Assembly: GCA_963755715.1 (NCBI GenBank)
Contig: CAVWLW010000004.1
Coordinates: 1-64,000 of the forward strand
Length of the DNA stretch: 64,000 nucleotides
From: an uncultured delta proteobacterium
GTDB lineage: Bacteria > Desulfobacterota > Binatia > UBA9968
Direction: 5' to 3'
The notes under the pieces were generated by a model, which was not told the DNA's origin, did no database searches, and saw only the letters and a program-made list of their open reading frames with translations. The position numbers and the translations under genes are program-made. Shown in pieces: positions 50,125-60,922 of this stretch. Every line of letters begins with the position of its first letter. The stretch's first letter is position 1.

Positions 50125-52831
50125 TTACTTAGGCTGCGGCCCCAAGACGACCTGCGCCAAATCGTCGACCTTCAGCCATTTCGCAAACGCCGCTTGGATA
50201 TCCGCGGCTGTGAACGCCGCGTAGCGTTTGGCCGCGGTGATGGGCTCGTCCAGCGGTAGATCGCGCGTCGAGCGATCGAGTAAGCCGCCGGCAATGCCCT
50301 GGGTGCTCGATTCACTGAGCGGTATGGCGCGCAACAGCAAAATTTTCGCTTGATCGAGCTCGGCCGCCGTAACTGGTTTGGTTTGCATGATGCGCAAATT
50401 GCGCTCGATGAGCGACCTCGCTTTGGCCACGTTCGGCGGATCGCAGGCATAGGACACGGCAAACACGGAACGGGTCTTGCCGGATTGTAAGTGGGCGTCA
50501 ATAGAATATACGAGACCGCTTTTTTCCCGTAGATCCTGATAGAGCCGGCTGGCGTAAAAGCCGCCGGACAAAACCTGCAGGCCGACCTGAAGCGCGTAGT
50601 AGTCGTCGTCTTGACGCTTGAGCTCGAAGGTCTGGCCAAGTCTGACCTCATCTTGAACACGGCTTCGATCCGGGACGACGGTGACGCTTCGCCTTATTGC
50701 GCGGCACCGGCGGCAAGTCCGTTTCAGGTTTCGGACCCGTGGCCTGCCACGAAGCAAAATATTTTTCGATAACGGCGCGCGCATGCTCCGGTGTCACTTT
50801 GCCGATGACGACGATGGTGGTCAGGTCGGGCCTGAACGCTTTCTCATGATAGCTACGCACGTCTTCGAGCGTGAGCGCTCCGATTGTATCGGGCGTCGCC
50901 TCACGCAGAGTCGGATCCTTCTCGGGATAAATGGCTTTTAGAAAGGTGCGTCCTGAGCGGTAAACCGGACTTTGCAGTTGACCCGCCACCGCTTGAGCGG
51001 TGCGTTGCTGCACGGCTTTGAAGGCCGCTTCCGGCAGCGCGGGATGCAATAAGTTATCCGCAAGCAACTCCACGCCGCGCGCAAAACCGTCCGGCAGGAC
51101 CTCGAGGGAAAAGCTGGTTCCCGCCTGCGCGTTGGCGCCGATCTCGTCGAGGGCTTCCTGGAAAGCGATGCGATCGAGCTTCGTCGAGCCGTAAGCGAAC
51201 AGATCGTTGAGAATCTGGTCGGCTCCCTCTTTACCGGCCGGCACCTGGAGCTCAGCGCGATTTTTTACCCGGCCGTACACGCCGACGGTGTCGCTGATGG
51301 TTTCCGGTTGAATGATCAGACGCAATCCGTTGGGCAGCACGGTAACGCTTGGGTTGACGGTGGACGTCGGCACGGCCAATGGCGAAAGCGCTTTTTTCGC
51401 CCAAGCCGGCAGCGGCACTGCTTTCGTCTGCTTCGGCGCAAAAGATTCGCCGCCGGAGCGCGGCCCTTCGGAGGCCACGGCCTCGCCCGATTCGTGTGGC
51501 GTCATAATCACCGTAACCGCGCTGTCGTTGATGAGGTATTTTTTCGCCACCCGATTCACATCGGCGACCGTGACCTTTTTGATCGCTTCGATGTCGTCGT
51601 CGATAGAAGTGCGTCCCTGGACGCTCAACGCTTGCGACCATTCAGCGGCCAATCCGGCAATCGAGTTTCGGCGAAATTCCGCTTCCGCCACCTCGCGGCG
51701 CTTGGTCGCTTCGACTAAATCGGCGCTAACGCCTTTGTCGACATAGCCGGCGATGATGGCTTTCATTTGGGTAACCAGGGCGGCGCTGTCTTGGCCGCGA
51801 GGGAATGCTGCGTTCGCGTAGCCGAATCCGGCCATGGGCAATGCCGTGCCGTCAAAACCGCCGGATAGAGCTTTGCCTTCGGCGGCGAGAGCGTAAAGTT
51901 CGCCGCGGCGGCTGTCGAGAGCATCGGCCAGCACCACACCGGCGGCATAATCGGGATCGTTGAATCCCGGCAATCGATAAGCCACCGCAACCAAACCGTA
52001 GGGCAGATCCGAATCGACCTCGATGGTCGCAGGTTTTAGCGGCTGCAGCGCGATTTTTGGCCGCGCCGGCACAGTGCGGGCCGGAATCGATTCAAACAAC
52101 TGCTTGACCGTTGCCAGCGCGGCGTCGGGATTGACGTCGCCGACGATCACTAAGATCGCATTGTTCGGCGCATACCACTTGCGGTGAAAATCCTTGAGCA
52201 TCGCCCCGGTGGTTTTTTGAAACGACGGCCGAGTGCCCAGCGCGTCGTGTTCGTAGGGCGTACCGGCAAACATTTGCGCCAGCAAACGCGAGTAAAACAA
52301 ATACTGTGGGTTGGAATAATCCTGCGCCACCTCCTGCTCGATGGCGCCCCGCTCTTGGCGCCACAGCGCGTCGGTGGCGAGGACGTCGCGCATGCGCACC
52401 GCCTCGATGCGCAGCGCGGTTTCGAGATCGCCGGTTGGCACGGTGAAAAAATATTGCGTGACGATTTGTTGGGTGTTTGCATTGAAATTGCCGCCCATGG
52501 CCGCAATCAGACTGGAAAGCTGTGCGGACGAAAGTCCGGGGCTGCCGCGAAACATCATATGCTCCAACGCGTGGGCCATGCCGGGAAAGCCGTTAGGAGC
52601 TTCGTTGGAACCGACTAAGTAGTTGATCTGCGTCGTCACCACGGGCGCGAGAGAGTTGCGTACGATGACGACACGCAAGCCGTTTTTCAGCGTCGCGCGG
52701 GTGATTTCCGATTCGGTGGCCGCTTGGGCGCCGACAGTTGCACCGCCTACGACAACGCTCACAATGACCCACGCCGCCATCCACGCGAAAACCCTTCTCT
52801 GTCCAATTTGTTTCAAATCGTGCGCCTCCAT
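50125..52831 (-). CDS. Secreted M16B zinc protease (PqqL-like), with a frameshift near 50690
   Basis: Signal peptide, LKNGL, GMAHALEHMMFRGS (HxxEH), NANT; C-terminal SRLYQDLREKSGLVY in ORF 50125-50784. Confidence 0.9.
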
Positions 52832-52850
52832 AAGTCGAAATGAATTTCCT

Positions 52851-53608
52851 CTAGTCTTCCAGCATAACTAATACAAACATCAATCCAACACCCACTCCAA
52901 TGGCGAGCATCTGCACAACTGATTTGCCAAGGGTTGACTCCTTGTTCAACTCCGGCACTAAGTCGGAACCGGCGATATATATGAAGCCGCCAGCGGCGAG
53001 CGGCAACATTATGCTGGAAAACTCGGCGACTCTGGAGCCAATTGAGAGCGACATGACGGTGCCCAGAATCGCAAACAAAGCTGATACAAAATTGAAGAAC
53101 AGCGCCTTCTTCTTCGTAAAGCCGGCATAGAGCAAGACAAAAAAATTGCCCAGCTCATGTGGAATTTCGTGAAAAACCACAGCGAGGGTCGTCGCAATGC
53201 CGATGTGAAGACTGACATCATAAGAGGCGCCGATTATAACGCCGTCGATAAAATTGTGAGCCCCATCCGCCAATAAATTCATGTAACCCACAGGATGTAT
53301 AGGGTGATCGGATTCCAGCACATGTTGATGTCTCCAGAGCAGAAGTTTCTCCAGAACAAAAAAGGCAAAGATGCCCGCCAAAACCAAAACGGAGGCTTGT
53401 AGCTTATTGCCGAATCTTTCAAAGGACTCCGGCAAAAGGTGAATGAAAGCGTCGCCGAACAAGCCGCCGACGGCCAGACTGACCATGAAAAATATGATGC
53501 GCTTTAGCTTCTCCTCGGCGACTGAGATGAACGCGAGGCCGATGAGCGAGAGCAGGCTTACCAAAATGACGCTGGCGAGGCTATAAGTCCAAACCGCAGA
53601 CGTGACAT
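52851..53608 (-). CDS. ZIP-family metal transporter
   Basis: GDAFIHLLPE, HQH loop, ADGAHNFIDG, FHEIPHELG, AAGGFIYIA. The 5' end probably needs one indel to reach ATG 53608. Confidence 0.92.
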
Positions 53609-53615
53609 CCTCTTT

Positions 53616-55068
53616 TCATCCCGCGAACAGATCCTGCACGATTGCTTTTATTGCATCCGTAGATGCCTGACCGAGATTCGTCGCGCTGGGCGTAGGAATG
53701 GCGCGTTGCACGCGGCGTTCCCACACGATCGCGCCGTCATCAATGCGCACGAGCTTGAAATCCACCAGAGCGCGCACGAACTTTTGCGTCTCGCCTTCCC
53801 AGCGCCAGATCTCAGTTACGAAAACCATACCCGAGAGTTTTCCCTCGCGAGCGATGCGTGTCGCTCCTGCGCTGTCGGCGGGAAATGCCGGAAAGCGCGC
53901 ATCTTTATCCTCGGGAAGAGAAATCTGAAAGCCTTTTTGCCCGAGTTCAGTTTGCAGGTTCTGGCGCAGCAGATCCATCACGCTCTGTCGATAGTCTTCA
54001 GGCAATACCTTGCCAGCCATCTCTGCTAGCGAACGAAGCGGATTGTTCGATGGCAAGAGCAGCGGCAGCGCCGTGCTGTTTTTTACCTTAGCGAGCCAAA
54101 GCTGTTCGGCGTGAATCGCTTTGGCCTCGGGAACCGGCGGCGCCGCGGTTTTGACGCTGCAAGCACTTAGCGATAGAGCAACACCAGATCAACGCAAGCA
54201 GCGCTGGACGCATTCTCTTCGAGATGCGGCTCAGCCCGTAAGCCAAAAAGATCAGGCAGCATCCGAGAGCCACGTCCGTCGGTCCTAAAGGGAGATCCAA
54301 CCGGACTGAGCTATAGAAACCCAAAAAGGCCATGACCAATCCTAACGCTGAAGAAACTACGAGGAAAGAACTCATCCGGCTAACCAACGGTTTTGCGGCT
54401 AGCGCCGGTAGCACCAAAAAGCCGAAAATCAGCAGCGGTCCCGCCATAATCACACCGAAGGCGATGATCAAGCCGGCGAGAAGATAGAGCAAGATGTCCC
54501 AAACCACCTGGCGACCTTTCAGCAAAAATGCCAAGTCTCTGTCGAAAGACGTCAAGAGAAATTCTCGGCGGAAGAGAAGCATAGACACCAGAACCATCCC
54601 AAACACCGCGACCAAAAGTCTTAGTTCGGCTTTCGACAGCGCGATCACTTCGCCCTTTAGTAGATTGAGAACTTCGATCTGACCGGCAGGATTAAAAACC
54701 ATGAACAAGATCGTCAAGGCGCCGGCGAAAGCATAAGCGGCCGCAAGGCGGCCCTCCGCTAAGCCTTTGCCGCGCTGTTCCAAATAGCCGAGCAGTCCCA
54801 TGCCGAGAAAAGTAAAAGCAAGTGATCCGACCATTGCGACGCCTCGTTCGCTCTGTCCCATTTGCGGCAAGAGTCCGGCCTGCTGCATCCAGAAAGTAAA
54901 AGCGACGCCTGCCGCGGCGATTTCCGGGAGTGTCAAACCGAGAAATACCGTGCGCCTAAGAACGAGGAAAGACCCGACGAGCGGACAAACCAAACCCATG
55001 ATCATTGTGCCGACTAGCGCGGGGAAAAGGAGATATGAGGGATTGACGATTTCAAACAACATGCTCAT
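53616..55068 (-). CDS. ZnuB/MntB-type ABC permease apparently fused, via a frameshift near 54190, to a lipoprotein-like periplasmic domain
   Basis: ABC-3 pattern (GSFLVLRRTVFLG, TSFDRDLA, GPLLIFGFLVLP, LDLPLGP). The next frame reads GVALSLSACSVK...LPSNNPLRSL, open into ORF 53616-54056. Confidence 0.75.
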
Positions 55069-55793
55069 AGGTGAAGACGTGCCTTTCTTTCGTCCAACCA
55101 GATCCGGCCTTTATCAATGCGCATGATACTGTCGGCCACACGTTGCACCATCTCAAGGTCGTGGCTGGAAAAAAATACTGCCAGACCCTTTTCGCGGGTA
55201 AGCTTGGATTAGTAGATCGGCGATGCTTCGCCGGGACTCTTCATCGACGCCGGATAGCGGCTCGTCTAAAACCATGATCTTCGGGTTCACCATCAATGCA
55301 CGGGCAATCAGCACCGTTGTTTTTGCCCGCCGGAAAGGGCAAAAAAGATTTCGCCGCAATCTGCTGCAATACCAATCTGCTGCACAATTTGCTTTGGCTT
55401 TGCTCCTTTTCGCCGCCGGGCAGAAATTTAAACGGATGGACGCGGCCGTAAGCGCCCATCTCCACGATCTCCGAGGCGCTCAGAGGAAATTGCGGGTCGA
55501 GCGTCGCGCTTTGCGGCACGTAACCAAAGTTCGCCAGCGGGCAACCGCGCGACAGAGGACACCGTCCGACGGCGCCAAAAGACCCAGAATCGTCCTGAAC
55601 AGCGTTGTCTTGCCGGAGCCGTTCGGTCCGGCCAGGCCGACGAGCTCCCGGCATAGATCTTGACGTTGACGTCATGCAGCACCGGCGCTGAATCGTAGCC
55701 GAGGCTGGCATTTTCGAGAGCAACCAGAGCGGCAAGCTTGGTGATCGACTTCTCCGCCCCGGCACTCTCGCGTGCATCGAATATCCATCTCAA
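55065..55793 (-). CDS. ZnuC-like ABC ATPase with multiple indels
   Basis: Fragments across frames: [34 protein letters not shown]...[14 protein letters not shown]; ATGA overlap with the permease. Confidence 0.8.
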
Positions 55794-55802
55794 GGTTGGC
55801 TT

Positions 55803-56739
55803 TCATAGAATTAGACTCACCGCCTGAACCAAGCTACGAACCGTATAGTCGATCCATTTGATGTAGGTGTCGGTTTCCGGCTGACCCCCGCCACCGCTGT
55901 ACAGGCGCAAGCTTTGATCCCGGTTTCGCTGGCGATCTGCTTGGGCAATCGTGGATTCTGCGCGCCATAAATTAACAACTGCGCTTTTTCTTGCTTGATC
56001 TGCTGGGTCAGCTCGACAATATGATTCGGCGTCGGTTCGACGCCGGGCTTTATTTCGACGCTGCCGATCCGCTTCATGCCATATCGATCGGCAAGATAGA
56101 CCCACTCCGGATGGTACTCGACATATTTGACGCCGCGCAACGGCGCCGCCATTTTGTCCCAACGTCCGATCCAGGTGTCCAATTCAGCGAGATACGCTTT
56201 CAGATTTTTTTCCAACGTCGGCTGATGTTGAGGAAAATTCACGAGAGAGACCGGCGGCGATATTCTGCAGCGACGATTTCGCTCTAACCGGATCTAAAAG
56301 ATAATGCGGATTGCCCTTGGGATGAAGATCACCTTCCGCGCGGTCGACACGCGTAGGCGCATCGAGCACGGTGATTCCAACGGAGCAATCGATATAACCC
56401 GGCCGCCCAAAAAATTTTAGGGTTGTTGGCGACCTCCAAGAGCGCCGGTATCCAGGCGTGCTCATCGTCTAGACCGATCAGGATCAGCACGTCGGCCCGG
56501 TTCAACCGGGGTACAAAGCTCGGTTTCATCGGCACACCATGAGGATCTTCGACCCCAGTCGCCAGAGTATCCACACTCACCAGCTCTTTCCCGACCTGCT
56601 TGGCGATATCCGCCAAAGCCGGCCACGTCGCGACGACACGGATCTGCTGCGCGAAAATTACGCCCGTTTCAAGAGAAAGAAATACAAGAGTTAGAAGAAT
56701 CGTTTTCCAGCTTCTACAACTGAACAATTTCATCTTCAT
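55803..56739 (-). CDS. ZnuA/TroA-like metal-binding periplasmic protein with multiple indels
   Basis: Signal peptide, EDPHG, DLHPKGNPHYLLDP, EYHPEW, EIKPGVEPTPNHI, spread over several frames. Confidence 0.85.
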
Positions 56740-56762
56740 AAATGAACTCCTTCGCAAACTCC

Positions 56763-58010
56763 TTAACGACCAAGAAATCCGTGGGTGTGGGCGCCGATAA
56801 CTGTCGTCCATTGCAGAAAGATTTGATTGCCGTTCTCGGCTTTGGACGCGCCGCGAAAATTGTTGTTCAAGTAATAGTATTCAAGGCGCAGTCGGTTAAA
56901 TTCGCTGAGATTCCAGGTGAGATATGGCGAGTAGCTCATGGTCCGTTGCCCGGGGCATCAACGATCGGAGCGTAGTCGACTTGGAATCCCGTCGACCAAT
57001 TCTTGTTGAGCTTCAGATCGGCGTAAGTGTAGCCACCATATGATTTACTGCGGTTGGCGTGTCATCAGTTGGAAAACGTTGATTGTTAAAATAGAACTCA
57101 CTCCCAAAATCACGCCCTGGTAAACCGCACTGTTAAGCGGTTGATAGCGATAGGTCAAATCAATACCGTTAAGAACTCGATTGCCGCCGCCGCTATCGCC
57201 GGCAAGCGCACCGAAGGCGTATAGGCCATGGTCGTGCCCAGCTCGACGCTGTGGTTATCGGTAAGATCGAAGTAGGTGCTCAGCCTGCCGAGGTATGTAA
57301 ATTGGCTCCACGAGCGCGATTTGCATTGCTGACTGGTCATTGTCCTCGCCGATCTTGTTATACCCCCCTAATGTCGCGCGCAAGAAAAACGGTGTCGGAA
57401 ACAAATAATTGACTTCCACTCCGTCCGCCTGCGTTTCGCCACCAATCATCCGTTGGACGGATAGTGGCTCATTTACGAAAGGCAACTCGTGCTCGTGAAC
57501 TTTGGGAAACCGCCCAAAATCGGCCAGAAACCGACCTGCCTTGACCGTCAAGTTGTAAGGAAGAGAACTTGTGATTGCGGCGGCTTCGTCGATCTCTACG
57601 CCATCCTTTGTGCCGTTGATAAAACTATACATTCTTGCAAACGGGTCCACGGAAGCTGCAATTCCCAGCTCTGCGCTGCGGAAATCAAAATTGCCTCCGG
57701 CTTTGCCAAGATTTTGCACATTGGCATCGAGCACGAGTCCCATGGACGGATTCAGCGCCGTCGGCGCACTTTGAACCGCCTGGACTGATTTCTCCACTTC
57801 TCCGATTCGCGCCGAGCTGGAAGATTTTTCCTTTTCCAATTGGTCAATCCTTTCCAAAGCTTTTTGCATCTGCTGCTCCATGCCCTTGACCGTGGCCCGC
57901 AGAGATTCCAACTCCGAACTTTGCGCCAGGCCAGCCGTTGGAACAAAAAATATTAAACCCCATAGGGTAAATGCCGCGCTTCGCCGCGCCGATGCTGATA
58001 GAGATACCAT
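56763..58010 (-). CDS. Outer-membrane beta-barrel protein with an N-terminal coiled coil and His-containing C-terminus (putative metal porin), multiple indels
   Basis: Signal peptide, coiled coil, LNPSMG, AELG..ASVDP, KAGRFLADFG...HEHELPFV; the 3' frame reads SEFNRLRLEY...FLQWTTVIGAHTHGFLGR*. Confidence 0.75.
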
Positions 58011-58015
58011 GTCGA

Positions 58016-58133
58016 GACCTCCCTCCAAGCCAAACCAGCCGCCCTCTTATTAAAAGAACCGCGACGATAGAAGGCAGACGATGTAGTTATGCTGTGATAA
58101 TTCCGATTTCGAACCGGGAACTACAGGGAGGTC
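58016..58133 (-). promoter_or_regulatory. SD/anti-SD pair controlling porin translation
   Basis: mRNA GACCUCCCU (58133-58125, 5 nt after the leader Pro-Pro codons) is a perfect 9 nt complement of AGGGAGGUC (58024-58016), which covers the porin SD. Confidence 0.7.
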
Positions 58134-58416
58134 AAAGAAGGCGGTCCTCGAACGTGCTGCTGTGCCGACTCCTCTTCCAGCCAAACAGCAACAGGAAGAT
58201 CGGCGACTTGAGAGATGCAAAGTTGTGGGACTATGGTTAAGGGACTCGCAGTTGGAGCCAATTGAGCGCGGGTGCCCTGAAGACAACTACAGTCCTTAGT
58301 AACTTGCGATACGATCGAAAAATGAAAATGGAGAGGAAGGAAAAAACAAACACAAGAGCCAGCGCGCTGATAACCTGCCGGCTCCCGAGCGTTTTTCGCA
58401 TTCCCGGAAGATGCAT
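58121..58416 (-). CDS. Putative metal-sensing ribosome-arrest leader peptide, copy A (RGPP); one T missing in the T-run at 58341-58346
   Basis: Restored: MHLPGMRKTLGSRQVISALALVFVFFLPLHFHFSIVSQVTKDCSCLQGTRAQ...QQHVRGPPSLTSL*; paralogous to 60629-60922. Confidence 0.8.
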
Positions 58417-58423
58417 GGCATCG

Positions 58424-58452
58424 AACCTAAACAATGTCATCCCTGATGTCAA
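58424..58452 (-). promoter_or_regulatory. sigma70 promoter, probably giving a leaderless mRNA for leader A
   Basis: TTGACA-N17-TAGGTT, then 7 nt, then ATG 58416; no SD. Confidence 0.7.
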
Positions 58453-58564
58453 CGAACCGCACGCCCTCGAAAAAACCTCCGACGATCGGACACCGTAACC
58501 GCGGGATTAGATCGGTCAAAGCAGTCACAGATAAGCTGATTCAGTGACCGATTGTTGTGACCAA

Positions 58565-59137
58565 TCAATGAAAAATCTCCCGCATGACCGTCTCGGCTAC
58601 GATAACATTAGCTTGGCCCGTTAATACGACGCCATAAACTGGGACCGGGCGGGAGGGACGGTGTACCTGCCACAGTACCCCGCCGGTTTTCGGATCCACC
58701 ATCACCGCGTCCAGCGCCACGATTACGCCGTCGGCTTTCATGCCGCGACTGTCCGGCGTCGGCTCCCAGCGCCGCACTTCGATGTAGAGGGCCATCGCGT
58801 CAAGGTTGGCCTCGCGCAGAATCTGCGCTGCCATCTCTGGGCTAGTGGGCACACGATCCTTGGTTGCCACTTTCACCGCACTCGGACTGAGGACTTCGAA
58901 TCCTTTCTCCGCAAGTCTTATGCGAGCTTGCTGGGCGAGAACATCTCCCACAGTCATGTTTTGCAAAACAGGGGGACCGCTGTCTGCGCCGGTGCGAGCC
59001 TCGACGGCGCCAGCTTGGTAGGTTGGAAGCACCGCGATTCGATGAAGGTTCTGCGGCAAAGGAGTAACCACTGCTGGCGCGCATGCGACTGCTCCGAATA
59101 ATCCGGCGATCAGTACGATTTTGAGCATGAACATCAT
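58565..59137 (-). CDS. Lipoprotein (DUF799/CsgG-like fold suspected)
   Basis: AVAC lipobox, RIAVLP, LAEKGFEV, IEVRRWE, MVDPKTGGVLWQ. Confidence 0.7.
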   Translation of the reverse strand: MMFMLKIVLIAGLFGAVACAPAVVTPLPQNLHRIAVLPTYQAGAVEARTGADSGPPVLQNMTVGDVLAQQARIRLAEKGFEVLSPSAVKVATKDRVPTSPEMAAQILREANLDAMALYIEVRRWEPTPDSRGMKADGVIVALDAVMVDPKTGGVLWQVHRPSRPVPVYGVVLTGQANVIVAETVMREIFH

Positions 59138-59174
59138 GCTGATTCGAAAGTCGTGTGTTTGTGACACGAACAAA

Positions 59175-59475
59175 TCATTCAGACGGAGGGTCTTGCGGCT
59201 TGCTGTAATCCCTTCGCCTAGCCCGCCAGTCATCGTTTATTCCATTGAAAATTCCATCCGGAAAGCAGTGACACATCCCTGATCCGCCAAAGAACTTTTT
59301 ATTCGCCACCTCGCACTCTTCCAGAGAGCTGTACCACTCGACCGCACGCGATTCCGTTTCCTTCATGTCTGTTCCCAACGGATGAATATGACATGAAGTC
59401 AGCCGCCCAAACGGCGTTAAAGGACCACGAGAGGCCAAGCCCGGCGAAGGTAAACAATCTGAATCCGAACATCAT
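59175..59475 (-). CDS. Small Cys/His-containing, probably exported protein (5' end uncertain or frameshifted)
   Basis: LTSCHIHP...EECE...GMCHCFP in ORF 59175-59438; a hydrophobic ATG-started frame begins next to the NlpC stop codon. Confidence 0.45.
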
Positions 59476-60628: not shown

Positions 60629-60922
60629 CTACGAAACTGGCGGCGCACGAATAGATAGGAAGCTGACGACAACTTGTGAAACAAGCTGTGACTGCAAAGA
60701 CTGGTACAGAACAAACTGTAACGGGACTGCCCACTGGACCAAGACGGGAACGACTCCCGTTTGTGCGCGGGTGCCGTGGTGGCAGGCGCATTCGTGATTG
60801 ATATTCGCTGCGGCCGTGGCGGCGTGAAAATGAAGCGGCAGGAAGAAAACCGCAAGAACCAGAAAAATTGTGATCGAGCGCCGTCGAAGCGCGAGTTCGG
60901 ACAGGAATCGCTCGATGATCAT
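60629..60922 (-). CDS. Putative metal-sensing ribosome-arrest leader peptide, copy B (RAPP)
   Basis: MIIERF...ITIFLVLAVFFLPLHFHAATAAANINHECACHHGTRAQ...SIRAPPVS*; intact 97 aa ORF upstream of the merC-like gene. Confidence 0.82.
   Translation of the reverse strand: MIIERFLSELALRRRSITIFLVLAVFFLPLHFHAATAAANINHECACHHGTRAQTGVVPVLVQWAVPLQFVLYQSLQSQLVSQVVVSFLSIRAPPVS

Follow-up and report, generated by a model that had tools for sequence, protein, structure and literature searches.

An R(G/A)PP leader peptide upstream of a porin-znu operon in Binatia and a predicted RNA switch at the porin ribosome-binding site

Does a ribosome that arrests near the end of a short leader peptide decide whether the gene behind it is translated? 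This question is raised by a locus in a 64,000-nucleotide (nt) stretch of DNA, hereafter the window, from an uncultured bacterium of the Binatia (Desulfobacterota). There, a short open reading frame (ORF), leader A (58121..58416), precedes a gene for a porin-fold outer-membrane protein (56766..58010) and metal-uptake genes of the znuABC and ZIP type, all coordinates of this locus being those of the minus strand of the window. Leader A ends in the arrest-type motif Arg-Gly-Pro-Pro (RGPP), and its last codons are complementary to the Shine-Dalgarno (SD) region of the porin gene. Judging from the sequence, an arrested ribosome on leader A would rather probably free the SD of the porin-znuABC/ZIP uptake operon, and its release would close the helix again. 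Computational comparison of the orthologs supports this reading as an RNA switch well, and a mechanism of the kind has been established by experiment elsewhere.

We focused our attention on the two complementary strands. The frame of leader A ends ... GTT CGA GGA CCG CCT TCT TTG ACC TCC CTG TAG, where RGPP is encoded by CGA GGA CCG CCT (58139..58150), with synonymous variation in the orthologs, and the stop codon TAG lies at 58123-58121. The anti-SD strand GACCUCCCU (GACCTCCCT in DNA letters; 58125..58133) falls within the last four sense codons, at +11 to +19 when counted from the start of the P-site codon, and the start of GACCTCCCT is the sixth nt past the second Pro codon. It is the exact complement of the porin SD strand AGGGAGGUC (AGGGAGGTC in DNA letters; 58016..58024), which stands 5 nt (TCGAC) before the porin ATG (58010-58008), and 100 nt separate the two strands. 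The complementarity, the 5-nt offsets from the Pro-Pro codons and from the ATG, and the positions given in the sequence-only reading from which this work started were thus all correct. When both strands of the window were searched, the 9-mer was found at these two sites alone; the chance expectation of matches is 0.17, and at least two matches occurred anywhere in only 1 of 100 dinucleotide shuffles.

The same reading had called for folding the segment 58160-57990, and its minimum free energy (MFE) structure does hold the helix, as an outer stem around two local hairpins. One of these follows directly on the anti-SD strand and includes the stop codon (58095..58124); it is kept in the closest relatives only (L003 and L007). 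The other, CUGCCUUCU ... AGAGGGCGG (58039..58077), is the counterpart of a CCCUCC/GGGAGG hairpin present in most orthologs (consensus CCCTCCCG ... TGGGAGGG). In several loci (e.g., L011, L020, L064, L071 and L081) one arm of this nested inner hairpin resembles an anti-SD (CCCUCC) and the other an SD (GGGAGGG), with a U-rich tract between the hairpin and the true SD; the hairpin may serve as a spacer, decoy, standby site or attenuator. A scan of 57500-59000 against Rfam (E up to 10) returned two chance-level matches and no riboswitch or known leader.

By its sequence, leader A is a conserved, coding gene for a leader peptide of about 95 residues that is probably membrane-anchored, and it stands upstream of the porin ortholog within the taxonomic family of the window itself. 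The earlier proposal that it is a leader was borne out: the ORF is conserved and coding, it ends in R(G/A)PP, and the codons for R, G/A, P and P vary synonymously in the orthologs. In an alignment of 18 leaders (A1), the invariant columns are L22, P23, H25, H27, C38, C40, R45, R85, P87 and P88. The consensus runs from a basic N-terminus through a hydrophobic stretch ending in LPLHFH (LPLHxH) to K-E-C-S-C-V-H-G-x-R-T-Q, a variable stretch, V-R-G/A-P-P and a short tail, the basic residues and the hydrophobic stretch (consensus LLLFVFFLPLHFH) being read from the alignment. In leader A, the invariant H25 and H27 correspond to CAT TTT CAT (H-F-H; 58322..58330) at the end of the hydrophobic segment, and C38 and C40 to TGT AGT TGT (C-S-C; 58283..58291), located 44 residues before the Arg of RGPP.

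A regular-expression scan of 95 loci gave 75 unique matches, 5 of which were discarded as false (other motifs, no family features and, in some, in-frame stops), leaving 70 leaders. The spacing from C-x-C to the Arg is 44 residues in 68 of them and 45 in the remaining 2, and the motif is RAPP in 44, RGPP in 25 and RSPP in 1. The own leader has five codons between RGPP and the stop; likewise, in 46 of 56 porin-type loci the tail past the two prolines has exactly five codons, with the stop at +21 from the first Pro codon. Regarding the stop codons themselves, the leaders of 68 loci use TAG (49), TAA (18) and TGA (1), nearly all read by release factor 1, and TT often follows the stop (TAGTT). One locus in each comparative count, and one row of alignments A1 and A2, is L020 from an unpublished genome (G005).

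A profile of the family detected two copies in the own genome, namely leader A and a second one, leader B. In a single bacterial family it matched 65 of 90 genomes, from 20 of the 23 genera, and it matched 0 of 400 other sampled genomes of the phylum. In public data, 453 protein clusters match the family; among the best 120 of these, every named one is a "hypothetical protein" and none carries a Pfam domain. Moreover, the Pfam and NCBIfam models gave no match to the 18 leaders. The profile of DUF2946 (PF11162), the family reported to include the copper sensors discussed below, matched 0 of these 18 leaders at E up to 1; when the own genome and 30 relatives were searched in six frames, 0 of 31 were above cut-off and no weak match fell at a leader locus. 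A distant kinship of the leader A family with DUF2946 is conceivable.

We then evaluated whether the pairing extends to the orthologs. Sixty-eight leaders had enough downstream sequence (L073 and L089, at contig ends, were excluded), and the next gene encodes a protein of 415-460 residues in 57 and a shorter ORF in 11. MFE structures were obtained for 56 porin-type loci, L074 being left out for its doubtful start, from the R codon to ATG+12; the leader end was defined as the R codon to stop+6, the ribosome-binding window as -24 to +3, and position 0 as the first nt of the first Pro codon, i.e., the P-site codon. At least 6 base pairs (bp) between the leader end and the ribosome-binding window are predicted in 53 of the 56 loci, so that the predicted pairing is, as had been expected, widespread among the orthologs. 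The strand on the leader side spans +1 to +17 (medians); it starts at or before +15 in 53 of 53 loci, and in 47 of 53 at least half of its pairs lie within +15. In the ensemble, the probability that the SD core is paired with the leader end is at least 0.5 in 43 of 57 loci.

The matching between the two strands is specific to each locus. The duplex energy of cognate leader ends and ribosome-binding sites (RBSs) averages -16.8 kcal/mol, vs -14.4 kcal/mol for swapped partners, and none of 10000 permutations was as good; among 33 representatives with RBS windows less than 70% identical, the values are -17.3 and -14.3 kcal/mol, again with 0 of 10000 permutations. This cognate-specific matching indicates, from the sequences compared, compensatory evolution, because drift from a shared ancestor does not favour cognate pairs. 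Duplexes with shuffled tails reach a mean of -13.8 kcal/mol. Of five leader windows of equal length, it is the leader end that pairs best in 37 of 56 loci, compared with about 11 expected, and its mean of -16.8 kcal/mol stands against -11.3 to -12.9 kcal/mol for the upstream windows.

The codons of the tail point in the same direction. Past the Pro-Pro codons the sequence is 77% pyrimidine, vs 55% in the leader body; Ser codons of the UCY type make up 60 of 80 in the tail and 89 of 248 in the body, and Leu codons of the CUY type 59 of 75 and 105 of 255. The anti-SD 4-mers CTCC, CCTC and TCCC occur 8.9 times per 100 nt in the tail and 1.4 times in the leader body, a six-fold difference. As residues past the arrest point cannot take part in the arrest, this bias in the sequence is best read as selection at the RNA level. 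Individual exchanges were also observed, namely a double change between the own locus (GAC-CUCCC/GGGAG-GUC) and L019 (GGU-CUCCC/GGGAG-ACC), and a shared helix position that is U.G in L069 and C-G in L059.

An arrested ribosome keeps the mRNA single-stranded to about +15. Accordingly, nucleotides up to +15 were masked, and the cost of opening the RBS was calculated for the stretch from the SD core through the ATG. Over 57 loci the mean cost fell from 12.6 to 8.9 kcal/mol, and at the own locus from 14.7 to 5.2 kcal/mol, which is the outcome that the sequence-only reading had anticipated for a fold with the footprint constrained. A ribosome terminating at the stop codon leads to a similar opening cost, with a mean of 8.2 kcal/mol. 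In RAPP-type arrest the first Pro codon occupies the P site and the second the A site, as described in PMC12992588, and by analogy an arrest at the own locus would place the first Pro codon, 58144-58142, in the P site.

Taken together, the following mechanism can be proposed. A stretch of RNA that begins at the Pro codons and reaches slightly beyond the stop would pair with the SD region of the following gene, some 100 nt further on, and the helix would enclose one or two hairpins. A ribosome arresting at R(G/A)PP with the first Pro codon in its P site would hold the strand on the leader side single-stranded, and during the arrest the RBS of the porin gene would be free, so that the porin, and probably the znu genes behind it, could be translated. 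On release, the ribosome would run through the five remaining codons to the stop and leave, the helix would re-form, and initiation would be blocked. If leader A behaves like the copper sensor CruR, the arrest would be relieved once the H-x-H...C-x-C-x-H cluster of the nascent chain has bound metal, and uptake would thus be on when metal is scarce, the direction of response that the sequence-only reading had also put forward. At the arrest, the His/Cys cluster lies about 45-60 residues from the peptidyl-transferase centre and would therefore have just left the exit tunnel.

Arrested ribosomes near the end of a leader ORF that disrupt an SD-sequestering helix of the downstream gene are known from SecM-secA and MifM-yidC2. 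These leaders monitor protein export or membrane insertion and control the localisation machinery, whereas leader A precedes metal-uptake genes. The likeness to these two systems drawn earlier holds for the RNA logic, which is as in SecM; the closest precedents, however, are CutF-cutO and CruR. With regard to the arrest motif, leader A carries the C-terminal R-A/G-P-P of the RAPP-like arrest peptides (ApdA, ApdP, ApcA, SecM and CruR), and the SecM motif, RAGP, is itself RAPP-like (PMC12992588). According to the same work, the ribosome-arrest motifs RAPP and RGPP are overrepresented at the C-terminal ends of small exported proteins encoded ahead of metal genes. Leader A shares with these proteins the C-terminal RAPP/RGPP and the downstream metal gene, and it has a putative localisation signal. 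The downstream classes given there are TonB-dependent receptors, YcnI, PCu(A)C, PepSY and DsbA/thioredoxin, and control of the downstream genes by RAPP/RGPP leaders is left open; the word "zinc" occurs 0 times in its main text, and its supplementary tables may list porin or ZnuA neighbours.

In Rhodobacter capsulatus, copper is sensed by nascent CutF, an exported protein that carries a Cys motif and, at its C-terminus, a Pro-rich motif for stalling (PMC9973294). Its stalling melts an RNA structure whose anti-SD shields the cutO SD; it acts in cis, and mutation of the anti-SD renders CutF dispensable (PMC9973294; bioRxiv 10.1101/2025.02.05.636593). Leader A resembles CutF in being a small nascent candidate metal sensor with a Cys motif, a stalling motif and an anti-SD/SD helix upstream of a metal gene, and a stem of the CutF/SecM type, formed by the SD and an anti-SD within or beside the footprint, is predicted in 53 of 56 loci. 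CutF differs in its reported DUF2946 membership, and in having a local intergenic stem-loop; in leader A, the anti-SD lies inside the last codons and pairs over about 100 nt around nested hairpins. In PMC9973294, CutF-like proteins fall into 29 clusters that have Cys motifs, His motifs or both and stand ahead of copper genes or, where the motifs are His-only, of nickel and cobalt genes; the terms "Zinc", "ZnuA", "porin" and "MerC" occur 0 times each in its main text, and its supplement may list the family.

CruR (Bp2923 of Bordetella pertussis), also a DUF2946 protein, is the first gene of a metal-uptake operon and has a CXXC motif 45 residues before RAPP (PMC9426467). Copper sensed through CXXC relieves the arrest and switches the uptake operon off, for which the authors suggest a folding force, and the output is Rho-dependent termination in a 162-nt intergenic region that needs a C+T-rich unstructured stretch (PMC9426467). 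Like CruR, leader A is a small, putatively exported protein whose Cys motif keeps a constant spacing to R-G/A-P-P, 44 residues vs 45. The motifs themselves differ, being CXXC in CruR, CxxxC in CutF and C-x-C-x-H together with H-x-H in leader A. Further differences concern the metal and target, copper and a TonB-dependent transporter for CruR and likely zinc and porin plus znuABC for leader A, as well as the output, Rho for CruR and a predicted SD-sequestering helix for leader A.

A number of results nevertheless weigh against the RNA switch. At the own locus, the segment 58160-57990 has a z-score of only -0.93, 36 of 200 shuffles folding as well or better, and the case consequently stands on the comparative evidence and not on the single fold. 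Masking lowers the opening cost by at least 3 kcal/mol in only 30 of 57 loci, and by at least 5 kcal/mol in 17, since in the other loci further C-rich segments take over. In the model the replacement segment is often the 5' arm of the inner CCCUCC/GGGAGG hairpin, and whether it replaces the leader end in vivo depends on folding kinetics. Of the 9 anti-SD nt of the own locus, only 5 fall within +15 and the complete set within +19; the four leftover pairs would not be stable. The mean probability that the SD is paired is still 0.78 under masking, vs 0.90; it barely drops because alternative partners are available to the SD, including some in the upstream leader RNA that was part of the calculation, for which reason the opening energy was used. 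The claim that a stalled ribosome masks the anti-SD and frees the SD is partly supported, namely by the predicted position of the strand under the footprint and the predicted energy at the own locus, and less so for the whole 9-mer and across all loci.

The helix itself also slides along the sequence, with 18 registers in 56 loci, the largest comprising 10 loci. There are two broad classes, in which the anti-SD is formed either by the G/A-P-P codons themselves or, as in the own locus, by the tail just before the stop. RNAalifold gave no consensus structure on a MAFFT alignment of the 56 spacers, as that alignment is out of register, and grouping the loci by register yielded isolated double changes only, with too few loci per group. 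Given the variable register, covariation by columns cannot be shown, and of the covariation looked for at the outset it is the register-free comparison of cognate and swapped partners that bears it out. Outside the SD core, the number of base pairs does not separate cognate from swapped partners (6.59 vs 6.35; 2443 of 10000 permutations). The pairing is thus partly compositional, in that Pro codons and a C/U-rich tail complement any strong SD, and in only 16 of 56 loci does the cognate duplex exceed 95% of the tail shuffles. In addition, a second leader type, which includes leader B of the merC gene, has no anti-SD under the footprint: for leader B, the predicted partner of the SD is a UUUCUCC stretch some 12-19 nt past the leader stop, outside the arrested footprint, and masking does not lower the opening cost (9.7 vs 10.9 kcal/mol). 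By a lax rule (at least 6 U in 8 nt within 3 nt), the inner hairpin is terminator-like in 25 of 68 loci. Finally, copper enhances stalling in CutF and thereby switches on a detoxifying oxidase, which is the opposite metal logic (PMC9973294); as the target of leader A is an uptake operon, a logic opposite to that of CutF is to be expected.

These results bear on three other explanations. If the complementarity were a by-product of Pro codons and a Ser/Leu-rich C-terminus facing the GGAGG-type SDs of the lineage, the helix would have no regulatory role, and the unconserved register, the RNAalifold result, the weak fold of the own locus, the energy that swapped partners still reach and the few loci that surpass their tail shuffles would all follow. 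We regard this as quite unlikely, as it leaves unexplained why cognate partners prevail in 10000 of 10000 permutations, also among the 33 dissimilar representatives, why the Ser and Leu codons of the tail are skewed to UCY and CUY with a six-fold excess of anti-SD 4-mers over the leader body, why the leader end is the best of five windows so often, and why the exact 9-mer pair is unique in the window. It is also conceivable that the arrested ribosome controls transcription, either by blocking Rho loading on the C/U-rich end or through a terminator made of the inner hairpin and its U-tract, with the SD pairing being secondary. CruR, the best-studied metal-sensing RAPP leader, does act via Rho with a C+T-rich stretch (PMC9426467), and the pyrimidine content of the leader tail, the terminator-like hairpins counted above and the leaders of the MerC type, with spacers of 119-263 nt and no anti-SD under the footprint, fit such a model. 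Yet the C/U-rich stretch is only about 20 nt long and predicted to be paired, the spacer between leader and next gene is short (73-111 nt) and highly structured in the porin type, the own locus has no terminator-like site between leader and porin, and there is no obvious way for the leader end to influence a terminator at the inner hairpin. A purely transcriptional model does not explain the cognate-specific matching of leader end and RBS either, and we consider control of this kind unlikely; the merC-type leaders may use another output.

The remaining explanation leaves the unmasking of the SD unchanged and concerns only the signal: leader A would be a monitor of the MifM/SecM type, whose arrest is released by insertion or export of its hydrophobic segment and which reports Sec/YidC capacity. 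Its architecture, with a putative N-terminal membrane segment and a C-terminal arrest motif in less than 100 residues, is that of monitoring substrates, and the first RAPP-type leaders to be discovered preceded sec and yidC genes (PMC7897499, PMC12992588). The genes downstream are, however, a porin and znuA, or merC, and not localisation machinery, and the invariant H-x-H and C-x-C with their fixed 44-residue spacer (45 in CruR) suggest metal sensing instead. Moreover, at the arrest the membrane segment would be about 60-75 residues from the peptidyl-transferase centre and should already have been inserted. A monitor of this type is thus very unlikely in our view.

If the RNA switch responds to a metal, this is most likely zinc by comparison with known zinc-uptake genes and zinc ligands, which is favoured because of the ZnuA/ZIP context and the His2Cys2-like ligand set; manganese, cadmium and other thiophilic metals are possible as alternative ligands, and the merC-linked paralogs may respond to something else. 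A further step, possible but doubtful at present, would make the leader a natural zinc sensor on the ribosome. Its knuckle of the His2-Cys2(-His) type, in which some 10 residues part H-x-H from C-x-C-x-H, lies exactly 44 residues from the arrest site; it would bind Zn(II) on emerging from the tunnel or translocon, fold, and pull the chain out of the RGPP arrest, in place of the apparent control of the orthologous porin gene by Fur-family boxes in the sister family. Engineered zinc-finger force-profile experiments (PMC4571824) represent the artificial counterpart. If true, this would be the first zinc-responsive arrest peptide and would extend metal sensing by nascent chains beyond copper. Literature joining an arrest peptide, zinc and RGPP was not found among the matches listed, and supplementary tables may list the family. 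In any case, the two families show no sequence similarity that could be detected, and yet the spacing of 44 residues is nearly that of CruR (45), which suggests a shared physical limit on the site at which metal must bind for RAPP-type release.

The kind of mechanism proposed here is already known from CutF-cutO and resembles SecM. What is new is the leader family, which falls outside DUF2946, its ligands (H-x-H together with C-x-C), the likely metal (zinc), porin-znuABC as target, a long-range helix around nested hairpins instead of a local stem-loop, and the joining of an expected CruR-type logic to an RNA output of the CutF/SecM type. Metal-sensing arrest peptides are a young field, CruR having been described in 2022 and CutF in 2023-2025, both for copper (PMC9426467, PMC9973294, bioRxiv 10.1101/2025.02.05.636593). 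The leader A family is compact, widely sampled and without a Pfam or NCBIfam model, its RNA output can be read directly from sequence, and the 65 of 90 genomes that carry it belong to one soil-dwelling family. Its parts are short and portable, which makes the model readily accessible to tests in standard laboratory hosts. Should it prove right, operons regulated by zinc or other metals but devoid of Zur boxes could be spotted by annotation pipelines.

The assembly of the window shows frameshifts in three genes of this locus, namely leader A, the porin gene and znuA. The region 56700-58500 was compared with contigs from three independent soil-metagenome studies and from one RNA library. These contigs are near-identical to the window but carry single extra bases, in the porin gene at 56949, 57057, 57102, 57205, 57324 and 57336, in the spacer at 58079 and 58106, in a T-run of the leader at 58340, and at 58469, with zero differences within either helix strand. 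Since independent contigs carry an extra base at each checked site, the frameshifts are most likely single-base deletions of the assembly and not gene decay. Regarding leader A, which runs from ATG 58416 to the stop codon, one T is missing in the T-run 58346-58341; the extra base at 58340 is present in contigs of three DNA runs and one RNA-library run, and with it the leader is open from ATG 58416. The N-terminal frame as assembled reads MHLPGMRKTLGSRQVISALALVFVF and matches the leader of L065, and the frame from the T-run on matches the family profile with an E-value of 1.1e-22. The comparative work rests on intact orthologs. Many single-base deletions were seen from 50125 to 58416 and elsewhere, a znuC-like ORF being split too and an M16 peptidase gene (50125-52831) probably so; the frames of small ORFs in the window are unreliable.

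Upstream of leader A, a -35-like hexamer TTGACA (58447..58452), assigned by consensus match only, and a -10-like hexamer TAGGTT (58424..58429), 7 nt 5' of the leader ATG, form a candidate promoter. A promoter scan of the region did not have this TTGACA/TAGGTT pair among its predictions. Nevertheless, TTGACA-17 nt-TAGGTT/TAGTTT/TAGCTT is conserved ahead of the leader start in L003, L007, L009-L012, L014, L017 and L018, and in L011, L012 and L014 TAGGTT is followed by 6 nt and the leader ATG. No SD is present before the leader start, and the promoter-like hexamer ends 6-7 nt before it, so that leaderless translation is possible; the sequence suggests that the leader mRNA is leaderless or nearly so. 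An alternative that was tried and dropped took the AT-rich stretch between the two helix strands as a Zur box plus promoter, which would leave the anti-SD outside the mRNA: this stretch is conserved in the three closest loci only and forms a hairpin, and the conserved TTGACA-17-TAGGTT upstream of the leader also counters it. Contigs of the RNA-library run span 58065-58395 and cover the leader and the anti-SD, which is a weak hint only, because such libraries can hold DNA.

Concerning the genes downstream, orthologs of the porin gene, which in the window is broken by several single-base deletions, were found in 45 of 61 related genomes. The long protein matched no Pfam or NCBIfam family at cut-off. 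An AlphaFold2 model of the L003 ortholog, built from a 45-row alignment (mean pLDDT 74.9, pTM 0.65), shows about 16 strands behind an N-terminal coiled coil, and its Foldseek matches in the PDB were OmpT (4.5e-11), Omp32 (9.1e-11) and OprP/OprO (TMq 0.57), with E-values up to 3.8e-9. Based on the beta-barrel of the model and on these matches, "porin" appears a fair label by fold. In the window, the porin gene is followed by a frameshifted gene for a znuA-type periplasmic metal-binding protein (55817..56811; PF01297), an ABC-3 permease gene (55068-54088; PF00950) and a ZIP transporter gene (53564-52851; PF02535). In L003 an intact ZnuA lies behind the porin (E 1e-46), and the order of porin-fold gene and znuA was seen in the two loci checked, the window and L003. 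Among the shorter downstream ORFs, at least two (the first copy in L042, and L050) resemble truncated porin genes. Leader B (60632-60922, minus strand), assigned by the family profile, ends in RAPP-V-S-stop and precedes merC (60506-60024, minus strand), a gene for a MerC-family membrane protein (PF03203); a protein of this family also follows the leader of one ortholog.

Some minor observations were made on neighbouring ORFs and related genomes. The ORF at 58565-59233 (minus strand) has a weak match to a GNA1162-like lipoprotein, with an E-value of 0.0011 that is below cut-off, and the one at 53616-54056 (minus strand), between znuB and the ZIP gene, encodes 146 residues that belong to no family; the two translations have similar C-terminal wording ("...VR.WE..." and "...W...R..."). 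In the sister family f3 (genus g9), the porin orthologs have no leader ORF. There, an AT-rich palindrome of the type TGATAAT...ATTATTA beside a TTGAC hexamer is the best upstream inverted repeat in 6 of 11 loci (L023, L024 and L026-L029), located 37-47 nt 5' of the porin ATG. By its sequence this palindrome looks like a Fur/Zur-family box, and the two families may control the same porin gene by different means.

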